From contig OMVV01000002.1 of the NCBI GenBank assembly GCA_900314585.1, positions 80,961 through 144,960 on the forward strand: a DNA stretch of 64,000 bases, read 5' to 3'. Under the pieces are notes generated by a model. The model ran no database searches. It saw only the letters and a program-made list of their open reading frames with translations, and had not been told where the DNA came from. Below are positions 1-11,069 of this stretch, in pieces. Position 1 is the stretch's first letter; each line of letters begins with the position of its first letter. The stretch is from an uncultured Erysipelotrichaceae bacterium. Its GTDB lineage: Bacteria > Bacillota_I > Bacilli_A > RFN20 > CAG-826. The translations under genes and the position numbers were made by a program.

Positions 1-505
1 AAGAAGCAATATAGAAAATGTCATATTCTTGTGGTTGATTTTCAATCTTTGCTTCCAATAATTCCTTTGAAGCAAAAGTCGGGCGATACTTAAATCCATA
101 TTCTTTGCAATCAACAATGTCGAATGAATAGATTTTATCAAAACAGCTAAAGATATTTTTGACTTGTGGATAAGTTGTAACGGCATCCCAAAGATATAAA
201 ATCTTTTTTGCTTTTTCGTGGTTCTTAAAAATAGCGTTAACATCATCGCTAGTAAAGGTTGTTGGATTGATGAAAATAAAAACATCAACATCAATGTCTT
301 TTAGTTGTTTTTGAATGAATTCAACATGGCGTTTAATAAAACGTTTTTGATAAGCTTTGGAATACTTAAAACGAAATTTACTAATTGATGAATTCTCAGG
401 TTTATATGAGAAATGAAAAACGTTATAACCTTTTCTTTTTAATGAAGCGATTATTTCATCATTGTACGTGTAAAACGGTATGTTAATTAAGACCGCGTTT
501 TTCAT
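1..505 (-). CDS. Partial (runs off window start) putative capsular-polysaccharide glycosyltransferase-like protein
   Basis: Open frame read manually from ATG at 505 to the edge: MKNAVLINIPFYTYNDEII...LYLWDAV...FDKIYSFDIVDCKEYGFKYRPTF. The YLWD...FD..YSFD..DC..YGF..P pattern is typical of GT-B-like proteins in cps/eps loci. Overlaps the end of the rmlD fusion. Confidence 0.55.
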   Translation of the reverse strand, partial: MKNAVLINIPFYTYNDEIIASLKRKGYNVFHFSYKPENSSISKFRFKYSKAYQKRFIKRHVEFIQKQLKDIDVDVFIFINPTTFTSDDVNAIFKNHEKAKKILYLWDAVTTYPQVKNIFSCFDKIYSFDIVDCKEYGFKYRPTFASKELLEAKIENQPQEYDIFYIAS

Positions 506-2216
506 ATTCTTTTAAAATCAATTTTAATTTTGAGTCATCACCATAAATTTCTGGTGAATCGTATGGCCGATCTGGGAAGACGCCATATTGTAGTTTTATA
601 TTCAGATTGTTTGCTTTGATGAAATTTTCAACCATTTCAGAGAGTGGCTTTGATTCTCCGCTACAAGCATTAATAATGCCAGTCACTTTTTGTTGAGTTG
701 ATATCATTGCAATGTATTTAGCAAGTAATTTGATATCGATGAAGTCATATCTGTTTTTGCCTGAATTGAACGGGAAGGTTGTCTTGCCATCTTTTGCGGC
801 ATCCAAAATTTTTGAAAAAATTGAGTGATTATCTTTATCAGATCCAGTGATATAGAAGGCGCGAATCCAATATAAATTGAAATCATGGTCATCTTTTAAC
901 TTAAACATCATTTGGCGAAGTTCGTTTTTTGCTTCTCCATAAGGAGATAGTGGTTTACATGGCGTGTTTTCATCGATTTTACCAACGTGATAACCAACTT
1001 CGTGCATCGACCCCATAACAGCAATATTTTTAACACCTGCATCAACAAGTGATTTTAAAAAATCAAAATGCTTATCTAAATCACCTAAATGGGTTGAGGC
1101 AGAATGATCAAAGCCGTTTCTCCACGCTAGATGAATTACAGTATCTGGATATTGATAGAACTCTAATAAATTATCGTGTTTATCAAAAATTGATGAATTA
1201 ATCTTAATTGCGTTTTCGACTTTTGAAGTATCGATATCGCAAGCGATAACTGTGTGACCAAGCTCATTAAGAGCATTTACTACATGAGGGCCAATGTAAC
1301 CATTCGCACCAGTTACCAAAACCCTTAGTGGGGCATCGCCACGTTTTTTGAGTTCAGCAACATATCTTTTTAATGCGTCTTGCCACGGAGGAAGATGAAT
1401 TAATCCAGCTTTCGTTAAGGATGATTTACTCATCCTACTATTCAAAGGTCTTTCAGCTTGGTTTGGATTGATTCGTTTATATTCTTCGCTGGAAACGTGA
1501 TTTACCTTAACGTTAAGATGCGCTTCTTTAAAAATAGCTTCTGCGAAATCAGCCCATGAACAAAAACCTTCATTTGTCGCATGGTAAACACCATACTTAT
1601 CAGTTTCAATCATATCGACTAAAAGTCTTGCTAGATCAAATGTATATGTTGGCGAACCGATTTGGTCAGCAACAACATTTAATTCAGGATGTGTTTTGCC
1701 AAGTTTTAACATGGTCTTAACAAAGTTATTGCCATTAACGCCAAATGCCCAAGAAATACGAACGATAAAATGTTTACCCAATGTTTGTTGAACAAATGTT
1801 TCTCCTAGCAATTTGCTTTGGCCATAAATTGAAAGTCCATTCTTTGGCGAATCTACTTCAAACGGTTCGGTTCCTTTTCCATCAAAAACATAGTCGGTGG
1901 AAATATAAACCATTGCCGCATCAACTTTTTTACAAGCTTCTGCAATATTTTTAGTGCCATATGAATTTACGCTAAAGACTTTGTCTTTGAATTCTTCTGC
2001 TTTATCAACAGCGGTCCACGCTGCATTATGCATAACAACAGCCGGCTTGTATTTATTAATAAAAGCATCAACGGCTTTAGCGTCCGTTATATCTAAATCT
2101 TGTATATCAATGCCCAAAACGTTTCGATATCCACGAGACTTTAGTTCGTTAACAACATCAAAACCAAGTTGGCCATTAACACCTGTTACAATAATTTTTG
2201 AATCTAAATTAATCAT
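483..2216 (-). CDS. rmlD: dTDP-4-dehydrorhamnose reductase (RmlD) fused to a second NAD-dependent SDR reductase/epimerase domain
   Basis: N-half: GVNGQLG, HNAAWTAVDKAE, YISTDYVFDG, YGQSK, DQIGSPTY (RmlD). C-half: second GANGYIG, HLAW, YGEAK. Start moved from 2234 to ATG 2216, just after the rmlC stop. Confidence 0.9.
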   Translation of the reverse strand: MINLDSKIIVTGVNGQLGFDVVNELKSRGYRNVLGIDIQDLDITDAKAVDAFINKYKPAVVMHNAAWTAVDKAEEFKDKVFSVNSYGTKNIAEACKKVDAAMVYISTDYVFDGKGTEPFEVDSPKNGLSIYGQSKLLGETFVQQTLGKHFIVRISWAFGVNGNNFVKTMLKLGKTHPELNVVADQIGSPTYTFDLARLLVDMIETDKYGVYHATNEGFCSWADFAEAIFKEAHLNVKVNHVSSEEYKRINPNQAERPLNSRMSKSSLTKAGLIHLPPWQDALKRYVAELKKRGDAPLRVLVTGANGYIGPHVVNALNELGHTVIACDIDTSKVENAIKINSSIFDKHDNLLEFYQYPDTVIHLAWRNGFDHSASTHLGDLDKHFDFLKSLVDAGVKNIAVMGSMHEVGYHVGKIDENTPCKPLSPYGEAKNELRQMMFKLKDDHDFNLYWIRAFYITGSDKDNHSIFSKILDAAKDGKTTFPFNSGKNRYDFIDIKLLAKYIAMISTQQKVTGIINACSGESKPLSEMVENFIKANNLNIKLQYGVFPDRPYDSPEIYGDDSKLKLILKEYEKRGLN

Positions 2217-2217
2217 T

Positions 2218-2769
2218 TTATAAATCAAACGCAATCTTTTCTTCTTTTAGTGTTTTGTGATGTTTATCCTTTTCAGATAATTCAATGTTTTCAACGTGAG
2301 GCCATTTAATATTAACATCTGGATCGTTAAACATAATTCCACCTTCATCTTCCGGATGGTAGACATCATCGCATTTATAGACGAATTCGGCGGTATCGCT
2401 TAAAACAACAAATCCATGAGCAAAGCCTCTAGGAATTAATAACATCTTTTTGTTTTCGGCAGTCAAAATTTCACCAATCCACTTACCATATGTTGGACTA
2501 TCTTTTCTTAAATCAACTGCCACATCAAAAACCTCGCCTTCGATAACACGAACAAGTTTTGTTTGAGGATGCGTTTTTTGAAAGTGAAGACCTCTTAATA
2601 CGCCCTTATGAGATTTAGAATGGTTATCTTGGACGAAATTAAAATGTAATCCGACCTTCGCAAAATCATTTTCGTTATAAGTTTCCATAAAGAAACCACG
2701 GGAATCTCCAAATACTTGTGGAGTAATAATATAAACACCTTTAATGTTCGTTTCTTCGAATTTGAGCAT
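2218..2769 (-). CDS. rmlC: dTDP-4-dehydrorhamnose 3,5-epimerase
   Basis: FGDSRGFFMETY, VQDNHSKS.KGVLRGLHFQ, GEVFDVAVDLRKDSPTYGKW, PRGFAHGF. Confidence 0.97.
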   Translation of the reverse strand: MLKFEETNIKGVYIITPQVFGDSRGFFMETYNENDFAKVGLHFNFVQDNHSKSHKGVLRGLHFQKTHPQTKLVRVIEGEVFDVAVDLRKDSPTYGKWIGEILTAENKKMLLIPRGFAHGFVVLSDTAEFVYKCDDVYHPEDEGGIMFNDPDVNIKWPHVENIELSEKDKHHKTLKEEKIAFDL

Positions 2770-2882
2770 TATCTACACCTCGATTTCTTAATGTATTATT
2801 GCTTAATGAAGTATGAAAATCAAGTAGTCTAACAATTACTTGTTACTTATTAACCTTGGTTTGTGATAAAATTATGACTTGT

Positions 2883-4091
2883 ATGGACAACGCAAAAAAG
2901 ATTAAATTCCCGTTAGTTCTCAATCCATTTTACATCTACGCAATCATATGGATGATAGTTTTGTTTATTCGTTCATTAAATATCAATCACATCTATCCAG
3001 CCACGCCTGTCAACTTGTGGATTTTTATCTTTTTGACAATCATTTTATCTTTGTTTTTTGGATATGTTTATCATCAAATTATCCTAAAAAATGCATCAAA
3101 AACTACTTTTGAAATAACAGGTAACTATCCCGCTTATTTTTTGGCAACAGTTTGCGTTCTTGGTATCATCGCATCCATCATTTATTCCCGCAATTTGCCA
3201 ATATTATCGACAATCCGTGGTGATGCACAGTCTTATCGTGAATTCGGAATTCCAACCGTCACCCCACTGATTATATGTTGCGCACTAGCTTTGAACGCAA
3301 TCACATCCGTTAAGCTATTTTATGGAAAAGAAAAACGCGTGCACAATTTGATTATTCTTCTTATTTGTTATGTTATTTTCTTACTAACATTCTCTCGTGG
3401 CGCACTCATCATCTGTGTTGCTTCTTCATTCTTTATAGCGATTTCAAGAACCAGATTTGGTTTTAAGAAAATAATTGGAACAATTATATTCGTTCTTATA
3501 TTTGCTTTTGTTTTCAACATCTTTGGAAATATCAGACAACAATCTGCATGGAATGATTCTTCATATATTATGGGTTTAGCTAAATTCGATGAGAATTATT
3601 CGTGGTTAAGCAATTTTTCGTGGGGAATTATTTATCTTGATTCGCCACTCGGAAATGTTGCATACAATATGGAAAATGTTTCTTACATCAATGATATTGA
3701 TGGTTTTATTTCCCAACTCATTCCAGACCTAATTAGTAAACGAATTTTCTCTGGTTATGATTCTCAATTAGTCTTAGCATGCCCAGGTTTGAATGTCGCC
3801 TCTATGTACGAAGGTGGATATAAATTCTTTGGTTTATTTGGCATGGGCATTCAATTTATTTTGATGTCAATGATCATCTTTATCCTGGCTGCAATTTCTA
3901 GAAGAAGAACCGAAACTCTCTTAGCTGTCTCTGTTTATTTAACAATTCTTTCAGCCATGACTTTCTTCTCTAATGTTTTTGTTTATTCTGGATTTTCTTT
4001 TGCTGTTTTGGTCATTTTAATATTTGATTTTATTCGTTACCCAAGTCCTAAACACGTTTCACTATCAATTAATGAAAAACAAACAATATAG
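2883..4091 (+). CDS. Polytopic membrane protein, probable polysaccharide repeat-unit polymerase (Wzy-like)
   Basis: About 10 hydrophobic segments, SRG motif after a TM, large loop; next to rml genes. Start 2883 preferred over 2856 because TG-A-TAAAAT lies at 2864-2872. Confidence 0.65.
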   Translation: MDNAKKIKFPLVLNPFYIYAIIWMIVLFIRSLNINHIYPATPVNLWIFIFLTIILSLFFGYVYHQIILKNASKTTFEITGNYPAYFLATVCVLGIIASIIYSRNLPILSTIRGDAQSYREFGIPTVTPLIICCALALNAITSVKLFYGKEKRVHNLIILLICYVIFLLTFSRGALIICVASSFFIAISRTRFGFKKIIGTIIFVLIFAFVFNIFGNIRQQSAWNDSSYIMGLAKFDENYSWLSNFSWGIIYLDSPLGNVAYNMENVSYINDIDGFISQLIPDLISKRIFSGYDSQLVLACPGLNVASMYEGGYKFFGLFGMGIQFILMSMIIFILAAISRRRTETLLAVSVYLTILSAMTFFSNVFVYSGFSFAVLVILIFDFIRYPSPKHVSLSINEKQTI

Positions 4092-9072: not shown

Positions 9073-9681
9073 AACAATCCAAATTGCTAAAACGACAAGG
9101 ATAATTCCACCGATTAAATTGGCGACCTCGTGTCGTCCTTTTAATAACTTGTGAATTTGCTTCGCTAAGATGATACCAACAATACAAATTGTAAATGTGA
9201 TCACCATAATAATTGAAACATGTAACCAGACAGTTACATTAGTGGATAAGTTAGCATGTAAAACGAAACCAGTTGCCAAGGCATCGATAGCGGTTGCAAT
9301 ACCCATAACAAACACTTCTTTATAAGAGAAAAGTTTTCGATGTTCAACTCTTTCTTTGTTCATTTGAATCATAGATTCAATAACCATCTTTCCACCAATA
9401 ATTATTAGTAGGCCAAATGCCACCCAAGTAATAACGAGTGAAAGTACTTTTGCGGCTTCAATTCCACCTTGTTCACCAACAAAGTAAATAACAATTTCAA
9501 GAAGCCAATATCCGATCAAAGGCATCAACGCTTGTAAAACAGCGAAAGTTCCTGCGATTAGACAAGATTTCTTTTTGTTTAAATCAGTATAAATAAGTCC
9601 ATCAGTAATAGAGACCGCGAAAGCATCCATGCTTAAAGCAATGCCAAGTAAGATGATTTTGATAATTATTTCAAACGACAT
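9052..9681 (-). CDS. mntP: Manganese efflux pump MntP family
   Basis: IALSMDAFAVSI and second repeat IATAIDALATG; GGIILVVLAI. Confidence 0.9.
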   Translation of the reverse strand: MSFEIIIKIILLGIALSMDAFAVSITDGLIYTDLNKKKSCLIAGTFAVLQALMPLIGYWLLEIVIYFVGEQGGIEAAKVLSLVITWVAFGLLIIIGGKMVIESMIQMNKERVEHRKLFSYKEVFVMGIATAIDALATGFVLHANLSTNVTVWLHVSIIMVITFTICIVGIILAKQIHKLLKGRHEVANLIGGIILVVLAIWIVLSYYFI

Positions 9682-11069
9682 TATTTTACCTTCTTAGAGT
9701 GATATTTTGCTTCAGTAGAAACAATAGGTACTGCGATAAAGGCAGTTAGGATAGCAAAGCCATATGTTCTTGGGAAGATAAAGAAGCCACTTTCAATGAT
9801 TGAATAAATGAGTGAGAAAACGATCAACATAAGCGAAAGCACCATCAAACCTCGATTATTTTTGAGATTTTTGATTGCCATATAAATGAGCATTCCAAGG
9901 ATAATTAGAACAACAACTAGCATCAAAATGCCACCATTGCCAAGATATTCAAGTGCAGCGTTATGAGTGGAAGTGTTGTTATTTGGCCTTGCGCTTGTTG
10001 GATCAGTAACGTTAAAACGAATCAAGATTTCGCCAAATAAATTAAAACCAACACCCGTAAACCAGTTTGCCAAATTGATTGATTCAATTGTTCGCATCCA
10101 AATCCATGAACGAGAATGAATCGATCTAAAGTTATAGCTTTCAAGCATGAAATCGATAAAGTTATCTAAGTTATTGGTTAAAACTAAAACAACAGTTGTG
10201 ACAATAATCGATGTTACAAATATACCAGCAATCAAAGATGCAGTAATAATCTTTCGTTTACGAGTTTTGCCATATTTATCTAAAAGATAATAAACAAGAT
10301 AAGCGAGGAATAATAACAATACTGAAATGGTTAATGTTCGGCAGTTTGTCATGAAGATATTCACGTATAAAATAACCATTGGGATAAAAAAGAACCAACG
10401 TTTATAGAAGTGGTGTAGATAGATCAATGCGATAAACGCTACTGAAAGCATAATCGCAAATACATTTGAATTCATGAATACCGATTTTGGGAATCTCATA
10501 AATGCATGATCAATCACAAAATAGTTTTGCCAGAAGTTTGCATAGCAATCCCAATCAACAACAAAGGAAATCACCATGAATATTGAAATAATTGTCAATG
10601 TTACAAAGGCGACAACTTTCAAGAATTCATCTAATTCGAATAGTTGATATCCAAAATCAATTAGGACAAAACACGTTAAACAAAGCACCAGCGCTTCTAA
10701 CGAGAAAATTAGTCTTGTTTCTAAATCGATATAATATGTGAAAGCATATGTTCCACCTTCGATTCCATCGAAGACATAATATCCATAATCTTTAAATGTT
10801 GCGATACCAACGATATTACCAACCGCTACTATTAAAAATAGTGATAACAAAATCAAATTCGGTTTATATTTCTTACGGAAAATGTTTATTAAAAACAAAG
10901 TAACTAAGCTAACTAAAAAGATGCCAGTATATAACCTAACATCGTTTCCAGTGAACTTTTGAGTAGGGTTATCACCAAAAAGTACTTCACCATTACAAAT
11001 AAACAAACCAGCAGTGATGGTTAATAGATATAAAAAGTAATTTCCAATCTTAGCAATCTTCCCAGCCAT
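9681..11069 (-). CDS. O-antigen ligase-like membrane protein
   Basis: About 12 TMs; SRSWIW, FTGVGF, HNAALEYLGNGGI motifs of the Wzy_C/O-antigen ligase family. Confidence 0.75.
   Translation of the reverse strand: MAGKIAKIGNYFLYLLTITAGLFICNGEVLFGDNPTQKFTGNDVRLYTGIFLVSLVTLFLINIFRKKYKPNLILLSLFLIVAVGNIVGIATFKDYGYYVFDGIEGGTYAFTYYIDLETRLIFSLEALVLCLTCFVLIDFGYQLFELDEFLKVVAFVTLTIISIFMVISFVVDWDCYANFWQNYFVIDHAFMRFPKSVFMNSNVFAIMLSVAFIALIYLHHFYKRWFFFIPMVILYVNIFMTNCRTLTISVLLLFLAYLVYYLLDKYGKTRKRKIITASLIAGIFVTSIIVTTVVLVLTNNLDNFIDFMLESYNFRSIHSRSWIWMRTIESINLANWFTGVGFNLFGEILIRFNVTDPTSARPNNNTSTHNAALEYLGNGGILMLVVVLIILGMLIYMAIKNLKNNRGLMVLSLMLIVFSLIYSIIESGFFIFPRTYGFAILTAFIAVPIVSTEAKYHSKKVK

Follow-up and report, generated by a model that had tools for sequence, protein, structure and literature searches.

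A fused RmlD and extended SDR gene from a gut Erysipelotrichaceae bacterium, a candidate bifunctional terminal reductase at the dTDP-6-deoxy-L-hexose branch point

Several enzymes that act at or near dTDP-6-deoxy-L-talose have been described. Tll of Aggregatibacter actinomycetemcomitans is a stand-alone dTDP-6-deoxy-L-talose 4-dehydrogenase (NAD+) (EC 1.1.1.339, KEGG K19180; Nakano et al. 2000, as cited in PMC11549994), and its pathway is outlined in the same source as RmlA-C followed by a reductase other than RmlD (PMC11549994). Tle/WbiB, a dTDP-L-rhamnose 4-epimerase (EC 5.1.3.25), is RmlB-like, with catalytic Tyr 181 and an insertion at residues 128-165 (PMC11549994), and Tal of Kitasatospora (EC 1.1.1.344) is RmlD-like (PF04321/TIGR01214). 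Known fusions within the rml pathway are the RmlC-RmlD proteins of bifidobacteria and microalgae (PMC6556577; bioRxiv 10.1101/854612). Here we describe a gene in which RmlD is joined to a second short-chain dehydrogenase/reductase (SDR), found in a 64,000-nucleotide stretch of contig OMVV01000002.1 (assembly GCA_900314585.1) of an uncultured Erysipelotrichaceae bacterium; this whole stretch is called the window below, and the gene lies near its start. Like the RmlC-RmlD proteins, the window fusion places pathway enzymes in one polypeptide, but whereas those proteins join consecutive steps, the window fusion would join two last steps that are alternatives to each other and start from the same substrate. 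The searchable rhamnose-pathway surveys and fusion papers make no mention of a fusion of RmlD to a second reductase.

We consider it probable that the fused protein is a bifunctional terminal reductase at the dTDP-6-deoxy-L-hexose branch point, with RmlD leading to dTDP-L-rhamnose and the C-terminal SDR to dTDP-6-deoxy-L-talose. RmlA, RmlB, and RmlC of the same locus would make dTDP-4-keto-6-deoxy-L-mannose. The N-terminal RmlD would reduce C4 of this RmlC product to give dTDP-L-rhamnose, and the C-terminal SDR would reduce that keto group from the opposite face, yielding dTDP-6-deoxy-L-talose. Both donors would then feed rhamnosyltransferase-like glycosyltransferases encoded downstream, with O-acetyl and acyl transferases decorating the polymer. 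We infer the talo stereochemistry, the cofactor, and the benefit of fusion, which could lie in a fixed 1:1 dosage, in complex formation, or in the partition of an unstable intermediate. If this scheme is true, one gene allows a gut bacterium with a 1-Mb genome to turn a single intermediate into two 6-deoxyhexose donors that are epimers at C4, and it would be an unusual pattern that enzymes of two competing last steps, and not of consecutive steps, were fused repeatedly. The parts themselves are ordinary; what is new is the occurrence of the fusion in both domain orders, its several origins, and the clear evidence from genomes on what a large unannotated SDR family does.

Structure and integrity of the fused gene

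The fused gene occupies positions 483..2216 of the minus strand, a strand that the preliminary description of this DNA had left unstated. From an ATG at 2216 to a stop at 483-485, one uninterrupted frame encodes 577 amino acids plus stop; translation might instead begin at a TTG at 2234. A public protein identical to the product (P0004) is likewise 577 amino acids long. The preliminary description had reported a single open reading frame with two complete SDR modules, and this was borne out: the frame contains, in order, the motifs GVNGQLG, STDYVF, and YGQSK, the linker ELKKRGDAPLR, and the motifs GANGYIG, GSMHEVGY, and YGEAK. Pfam and NCBIfam models split the protein into an RmlD domain at residues 7-289 and a PF01370 domain at residues 299-516 and beyond. 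The linker itself (about residues 290-297, inside ELKKRGDAPLR; 1326..1349, minus strand) is short and poorly conserved, and across 47 fusions of the same domain order the inter-domain gap measures 2-18 residues of unrelated sequence. The AlphaFold model of the whole 577-residue chain has a mean predicted local distance difference test (pLDDT) score of 94 and a predicted template modeling (pTM) score of 0.87.

Unfused adjoining rmlD and SDR genes are known elsewhere, some with a 4-nucleotide overlap, and an assembly error or frameshift that merged two such genes could produce an apparent fusion. We regard this origin as extremely improbable. Logan contigs from three runs of three studies (bovine-gut or unspecified metagenomes) cover the fusion without a gap and with 5-7 substitutions, which alter three residues and introduce no stops. 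One contig each in runs X1 and X2 spans 300-2900, and the contig of run X3 spans 1101-2174, the junction at about 1330-1350 included; run X1 may be the sample from which the window was assembled. The junction, at which the preliminary description had proposed to check the reads, has neither a stop nor an indel nearby in the contigs of these three runs. Both domains occur together in 111 protein clusters. In addition, four other protein clusters from separate assemblies are 76-79% identical over all 577 residues, and one of these relatives, on a 931-kb contig, has an equivalent 577-amino-acid protein in a fully syntenic locus, its genes arranged as in the window. The fusion is confirmed as real and not an assembly artefact, and both of its domains are shown to be intact and under purifying selection.

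The N-terminal half (residues 7-289; 1350..2198, minus strand) carries the GVNGQLG, STDYVF, and YGQSK motifs of dTDP-4-dehydrorhamnose reductase. It scores 313.8 bits against the rmlD equivalog model TIGR01214, for which the cut-off is 224.05, with residues 7-288 aligned to model positions 1-284 of 285. Its best Foldseek matches are RmlD structures, with 1vl0 at 46% identity, a TM score of 0.97 (by target length), and 1.1 Å root-mean-square deviation. All 47 fusions of the same order keep residues G12, G15, S106, D108, Y109, Y131, and K135. By curated model and fold this half is assigned to RmlD, as the preliminary description had proposed for the first module, and the context of rmlA, rmlB, and rmlC in the locus supports its predicted reduction of dTDP-4-keto-6-deoxy-L-mannose to dTDP-L-rhamnose. 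It is the sole RmlD in a genome that is 93% complete. Compared with RmlD/RfbD (EC 1.1.1.133; TIGR01214; PDB 1vl0, 3sc6, 1kbz), the N-terminal half is a full-length member with the same fold and catalytic residues, and the fusion differs from it by the additional C-terminal SDR domain of about 280 amino acids. Databases, NCBI among them, name the fused proteins only "dTDP-4-dehydrorhamnose reductase" (RmlD) and leave the second activity unannotated; any talose capacity is invisible in annotations while the fusions are named plain RmlD.

The C-terminal half (residues 298-577; 486..1325, minus strand) is an extended-SDR domain that carries GANGYIG, an Asp at the end of beta-2, HLAWRNGF, GSMHEVGY, ENTPCKP, YGEAK, and FPDRPYDSP. 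The preliminary description had suggested a search of each half with hidden Markov models; in the Pfam and NCBIfam searches the N-terminal half lay above the RmlD cut-off, and the C-terminal half matched the generic PF01370 model and no curated family. In the NCBIfam scan, no model came near its cut-off for the C-terminal half (the best was galE, at 62 bits against 262) and the rmlD models gave no match to it; PF04321 touches merely the first 42 residues of one stand-alone orthologue. G-x2-G-x2-G, D31, Y130, and K134 (domain numbering) are invariant in the family alignments A1 and A3, stand-alone relatives included, and the 47 same-order fusions likewise show no variation in the glycine motif or in Ser/Thr-Tyr-Lys. 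Since every catalytic residue is invariant, the reading of the second domain as dead or regulatory was rejected. Modelled alone, the domain has a pLDDT of 93.5 and a pTM of 0.91. Its nearest PDB chains are about 20% identical and comprise UDP-GlcNAc, UDP-Glc, and UDP-GlcA 4-epimerases and the GDP-4-keto-6-deoxy-D-mannose reductase Rmd; since these folds are mostly epimerases together with one reductase, the fold cannot decide between the two activities. The domain is an extended SDR of the GalE type and not of the RmlD type, with no close relative solved. In SDRs, an Asp at the end of beta-2 usually favors NAD. Because the invariant D31 ends beta-2 of the C-terminal half, the C-terminal SDR would probably use NADH.

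The C-terminal SDR family and its predicted reaction

In a genome scan, the family of the C-terminal half was found in at least 596 species-representative genomes. The best 80 of these at least 596 relatives are all stand-alone genes of 264-307 amino acids, carried by Lachnospiraceae, Bacteroides, Muribaculaceae, Bifidobacterium, Gardnerella, Alloscardovia, Saccharibacteria, Methanobrevibacter, Ruminococcus flavefaciens, and a Lactococcus plantarum metagenome-assembled genome (MAG); no Pasteurellaceae are among the carriers of these 80. The stand-alone orthologues are 44-60% identical to the C-terminal half, and many of them lie with rmlA, rmlB, and usually rmlC, in the slot of rmlD. Examples are rmlA-rmlC-rmlB-SDR (L029) and rmlA-rmlC-SDR (L038, L060, L065), and the same slot is filled in L028, L027, L025, L026, and L018.

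In the phylum of the window the family is rare, with carriers in 5 of 400 sampled genomes. These five were considered together with two relatives of the same order, one of good quality (G027) and one 69% complete (G034), and RmlD absence was judged with TIGR01214 at E<=1e-20. RmlC is present and RmlD absent in five of the six good-quality carriers, one of the five being a closed 2.2-Mb genome. The SDR gene lies together with rmlA and rmlB in all five and with rmlC too in four of them. Across the seven relatives with the family, RmlC is always kept, mostly within a few kb, and six of the seven are without RmlD. In a further sample from other phyla, RmlD is lacking in 4 of 50 carriers, one of which has a four-gene operon on a 2.08-Mb contig. 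The total is at least nine RmlD-less genomes with a stand-alone orthologue, two of them closed or nearly so.

An RmlD-less genome would offer no dTDP-L-rhamnose, and the presence of the family there argues for a terminal 4-ketoreductase and against a rhamnose-dependent epimerase. The retention of RmlC in all seven relatives in turn indicates that the substrate is the RmlC product and not the RmlB product. These genomes indicate that the family works as an alternative terminal 4-ketoreductase, acting after RmlC, where RmlD is absent. The preliminary description had taken the second domain for a C4-reductase type acting on the RmlC product, and the orthologues in the rmlD slot of RmlD-less genomes agree with it. 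Its reading is supported for the mechanism, while membership of the Tll family, the product, and the splitting of one intermediate between two outcomes stay putative. Reduction at C4 of the RmlC product yields either L-rhamnose or 6-deoxy-L-talose. Where a true RmlD is present as well, as a separate gene or in the same protein, a talo product is the non-redundant reading, and the product of the C-terminal half is most plausibly dTDP-6-deoxy-L-talose. The family is widespread in gut and mucosal bacteria yet annotated as a generic oxidoreductase only; a firm assignment would allow genome-based prediction of 6-deoxy-L-talose, an immunologically relevant surface sugar.

A different fusion of this family was seen in G034, the 69%-complete genome from the same order as that of the window. 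There, the SDR is joined at its C-terminus to a glycosyltransferase of family 2 (GT2) in a 544-amino-acid protein (L019:5938-7572) encoded directly after rmlA-rmlC, and no RmlD was found in this incomplete genome.

The link of the family to glycans that contain 6-deoxy-L-talose is correlative and runs through genera that carry the family or are related to carriers. Pseudolactococcus laudensis has rmlABCD and an annotated oxidoreductase and makes an O-acetylated 6-deoxy-L-talan (PMC12599335); in the Lactococcus plantarum MAG, a family member lies directly after an RgpA-like GT1 gene and RgpF. The exopolysaccharide (EPS) of Bifidobacterium longum 35624 contains 6-deoxy-L-talose, and its cluster has rml genes and two NAD-dependent reductase/epimerases (PMC5033381); in Bifidobacterium and Gardnerella genomes, the family adjoins rmlA and rmlB. 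6-Deoxy-L-talose is commonly O-acetylated (PMC5033381), and acyl or acetyl transferases are encoded in the window locus, in a locus of Thomasclavelia cocleata, and on plasmids of Lactiplantibacillus plantarum and Arsenophonus, the last three of which are described below. The context of the window locus, with WaaS/CpsH glycosyltransferases, a rhamnosyltransferase-like GT2, a WbbJ-like O-acetyltransferase, an Acyl_transf_3 protein, and polymerases, likewise fits a talose product.

Compared by description only, Tll and the C-terminal family would share a pathway role, in that a non-RmlD SDR with an NAD-type Rossmann fold replaces RmlD after RmlA, RmlB, and RmlC; Tll is stand-alone, whereas in the window the domain is fused to RmlD. 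Names assigned by the Joint Genome Institute (JGI) call three homologues of the C-terminal half (P0019, P0124, and P0249; two full-length and one 65-amino-acid fragment) dTDP-6-deoxy-L-talose 4-dehydrogenase (NAD+). A relative that is 43% identical is encoded on plasmid paPb3 of the gammaproteobacterial insect symbiont Arsenophonus sp. aPb (NZ_CP123502.1, L120:5362-11595). It lies between an RgpF-family gene with an ATP-binding cassette (ABC) transporter ATPase and two GT2 genes plus acyltransferases, with rfbC-rfbD nearby, an arrangement that looks like an ABC-transporter-dependent talan or rhamnan module. Together, the JGI labels and the Arsenophonus plasmid lean towards the lineage of the window as the one that holds the characterized Tll.

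The O45 antigen of Escherichia coli contains 6-deoxy-L-talose (Jann et al. 1995, as cited in PMC7198725). In the O-antigen cluster of E. coli O45:H2 FWSEC0003, rfbB, rfbC, and rfbA are present, rfbD is absent, and a 272-amino-acid SDR (WP_000649484.1; NZ_CP031916.1 3503366-3504184; L115:6367-7185) is encoded directly after rfbC. This putative Tll occupies the same slot as the C-terminal family, after rmlC and with no RmlD, but its sequence is unrelated. BLASTP between the two gave E>1, hhalign gave a probability of 62.9% over 56 columns, and a profile search of the O45:H2 genome left the O45 SDR gene unmatched. The O45 SDR also has FNLTK, with Phe for the SDR Tyr, in place of Y-x3-K, and an Arg after beta-2, and among the O45-type proteins, a gammaproteobacterial family, none carries the JGI talose-dehydrogenase label. 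The O45 SDR was rejected as a proxy for Tll, as it belongs to an SDR lineage unrelated to the C-terminal half. At least two unrelated SDR lineages therefore occupy the slot of the putative talose reductase.

The other described enzymes of the talose route are set apart from the C-terminal half. Tle/WbiB enzymes, as described, are larger, RmlB-like, and need dTDP-rhamnose, whereas the C-terminal half has about 280 amino acids, its catalytic Tyr at position 130, and no such insertion in the model. A Tle/WbiB-type epimerase would be expected to co-occur with RmlD, and the C-terminal family departs from this in its RmlD-less carriers. Kitasatospora Tal is RmlD-like, and the C-terminal half falls outside the RmlD sequence family.

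Recurrence of the fusion and alternative explanations

The preliminary description had proposed a count of two-domain homologues, and of the 120 clusters (at 90% identity) that best match the whole protein, 111 have two domains, 47 in the RmlD-SDR order and 64 in the SDR-RmlD order. On a FastTree phylogeny of 222 sequences of the C-terminal half, the RmlD-SDR order needs 6 label changes, at least 4 of them forced by well-supported branches, and the SDR-RmlD order needs 10, at least 5 of them forced; FastTree support is approximate, and fissions are indistinguishable from fusions in these counts. Five fusions, the window protein among them, form a small clade that branches within stand-alone genes. 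Because there are two domain orders, a single origin of the fusion is excluded, and the sequences indicate that RmlD and the SDR were fused several times. At 50% identity, about 5-7 fused representatives occur among 1.84 billion proteins, and no other fusion was found among the sampled genomes of the class or phylum of the window; the fusion is rare and its parts are common. This recurrence in both orders and the under-annotation of the fused proteins had been missed by the preliminary description, and the fusion of the window is not unique.

Adjoining but unfused rmlD and SDR genes were also found, again in both orders (L031, L033, L035, and L036; L098 and L104). On plasmid pKCCP11226_01 of Lactiplantibacillus plantarum (NZ_CP046263.1, L119:6859-8540), the genes run rfbA-rfbC-rfbB-rfbD-SDR and rfbD and the SDR gene overlap by 4 nucleotides, an arrangement that by its sequence is one mutation away from the architecture of the window. 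This plasmid is a mobilizable EPS plasmid in a cultured, food-grade strain. In the cultured Thomasclavelia cocleata, the genes after the fusion encode an Acyl_transf_3 protein, RgpF, an ABC transporter, and a GT2, which by gene content is a rhamnan-type locus with an acylase. A fusion is also present in the cultured Granulicatella sp. zg-84.

RmlD and the SDR also occur in other domain combinations. Protein P0090 (579 amino acids) has two RmlD-family domains in tandem (PF04321 matches twice, with 600 bits overall); here an RmlD-like paralogue may take the place of the GalE-like SDR as the fusion partner of RmlD, as a parallel solution. GT2-RmlD fusions (P0116, P0117, and P0120), fusions of a PF01943 flippase-like domain to RmlD (P0118, P0119, and P0121-P0123), and an SDR-DUF5672 fusion (P0431) were also present.

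Several points weigh against a talose-forming reductase. The chemistry of the family is a prediction from its genes. Its putative homology to Aggregatibacter Tll rests on the automatic JGI labels, and the talose label is inconsistent within one 90% cluster, where most members are named "nucleoside-diphosphate-sugar epimerase". The talose link to Pseudolactococcus and Bifidobacterium is one of genus and annotation, not of the same gene. The solved neighbors of the C-terminal half are mostly 4-epimerases, with Rmd as the one 4-reductase, and an RmlD-like gene accompanies the family in 46 of the 50 carriers from other phyla, which an epimerase role would predict as well. Fusions usually join consecutive steps, and the 4-epimerase route is established (PMC11549994), so that the C-terminal domain could instead be a Tle/WbiB-like dTDP-L-rhamnose 4-epimerase that converts part of the RmlD product to dTDP-6-deoxy-L-talose. 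We think this unlikely. Its orthologues occupy the rmlD slot of at least nine RmlD-less genomes, where the substrate would be missing, and the domain, at 281 amino acids with Tyr 130, has neither the RmlB-like build nor the Tyr181 and 128-165 insertion of Tle/WbiB (PMC11549994). That the domain reduces the RmlB product to dTDP-D-fucose or dTDP-D-quinovose, or acts on some other nucleotide sugar, seems to us unlikely to the same degree: its match to generic PF01370 alone and to no curated family would permit this, and rerouting of the pathway by dTDP-D-fucose reductases is cited as an alternative (PMC5033381), but with the RmlB product as substrate there would be no use for RmlC, which all seven relatives keep although six of them lack RmlD, and the repeated fusion or adjacency with RmlD suggests that both enzymes act at one metabolic node.

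In principle, the family could also complete an ordinary rhamnose pathway in RmlD-less genomes, which would make the C-terminal domain a non-orthologous analogue of RmlD that produces dTDP-L-rhamnose, and the fusion either redundant or served by a structural or regulatory C-terminal domain. This we hold to be very unlikely, because many separate fusions in both orders with catalytic residues kept in both halves would be unexpected for duplicates, and a Sharpea-like genome (G379) has two RmlD genes plus an SDR of this family. A second enzyme with RmlD's own product would not be kept so recurrently in fusion to, or adjacent to, RmlD. A further and doubtful possibility, which would make the fusion more than a means of co-expression, concerns how the two domains work together. 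The SDR domains could pack as an intramolecular pseudo-dimer (pTM 0.87 for the two-domain chain) that partitions the unstable 4-keto intermediate at a fixed ratio, or they could act as a two-site rhamnose/talose 4-epimerase with cofactor cycling, in which one domain would run backwards, dTDP-L-rhamnose and dTDP-6-deoxy-L-talose would be interconverted, and the cofactor would be recycled internally. If so, selection for a physical RmlD-Tll complex would account for the repeated independent fusion in both orders, and such a complex might also form between separate proteins.

The surface-glycan locus and its genome

The genome is 1.04 Mb in size, with 36-37% G+C, 30 contigs, and an estimated completeness of 93%, and its lineage is one of small genomes. 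Most of the sequencing runs in which this stretch occurs are gut metagenomes of bovine or goat origin. Immediately upstream of the fusion lies rmlC (2218..2769, minus strand), which encodes a dTDP-4-dehydrorhamnose 3,5-epimerase of 183 amino acids that matches the full PF00908 profile (E=2.5e-77). The preliminary description had placed the fusion directly downstream of rmlC, and the rmlC stop indeed ends one nucleotide ahead of the fusion ATG; given this spacing, the two genes are probably translationally coupled. The other end of the fusion gene is overlapped by the gene for a WaaS/CpsH-family glycosyltransferase, the 5' part of which lies at 1..505 (minus strand) before it runs off the left edge of the window (317 amino acids in full; NF053598, E=4.5e-59; L001:18513-19466). 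On the other side of rmlC, a divergent plus-strand gene (2856..4091) encodes an oligosaccharide repeat-unit polymerase of 411 amino acids (TIGR04370, 59 bits against a cut-off of 40), which is probably part of the same surface-glycan locus.

The minus-strand genes run rmlC, fusion, WaaS/CpsH glycosyltransferase, WbbJ-like hexapeptide O-acetyltransferase, and second WaaS/CpsH glycosyltransferase, and continue with a GT2, a 408-amino-acid protein, rmlA, and a weakly Wzy-like membrane protein. The similarity of the GT2 to rhamnosyltransferases is sub-threshold. Just past rmlA, rmlB and the Acyl_transf_3 protein are encoded on the opposite strand, convergent with the operon. The two WaaS/CpsH glycosyltransferases are paralogous (317 and 333 amino acids; within L001:14858-19466 and window 1-505) and have no Pfam match, and the 408-amino-acid protein between the fusion and rmlA has no match in Pfam or NCBIfam. 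These three proteins are candidates for the rhamnose- and 6-deoxy-L-talose-specific transferases. A second membrane protein, of 462 amino acids and similar to Wzy_C/O-antigen ligases, is encoded at window positions 9681-11069 (minus strand), 7 kb from the glycan locus, and the genes in between are housekeeping genes (metK, a hibernation factor, and HAD phosphatases).

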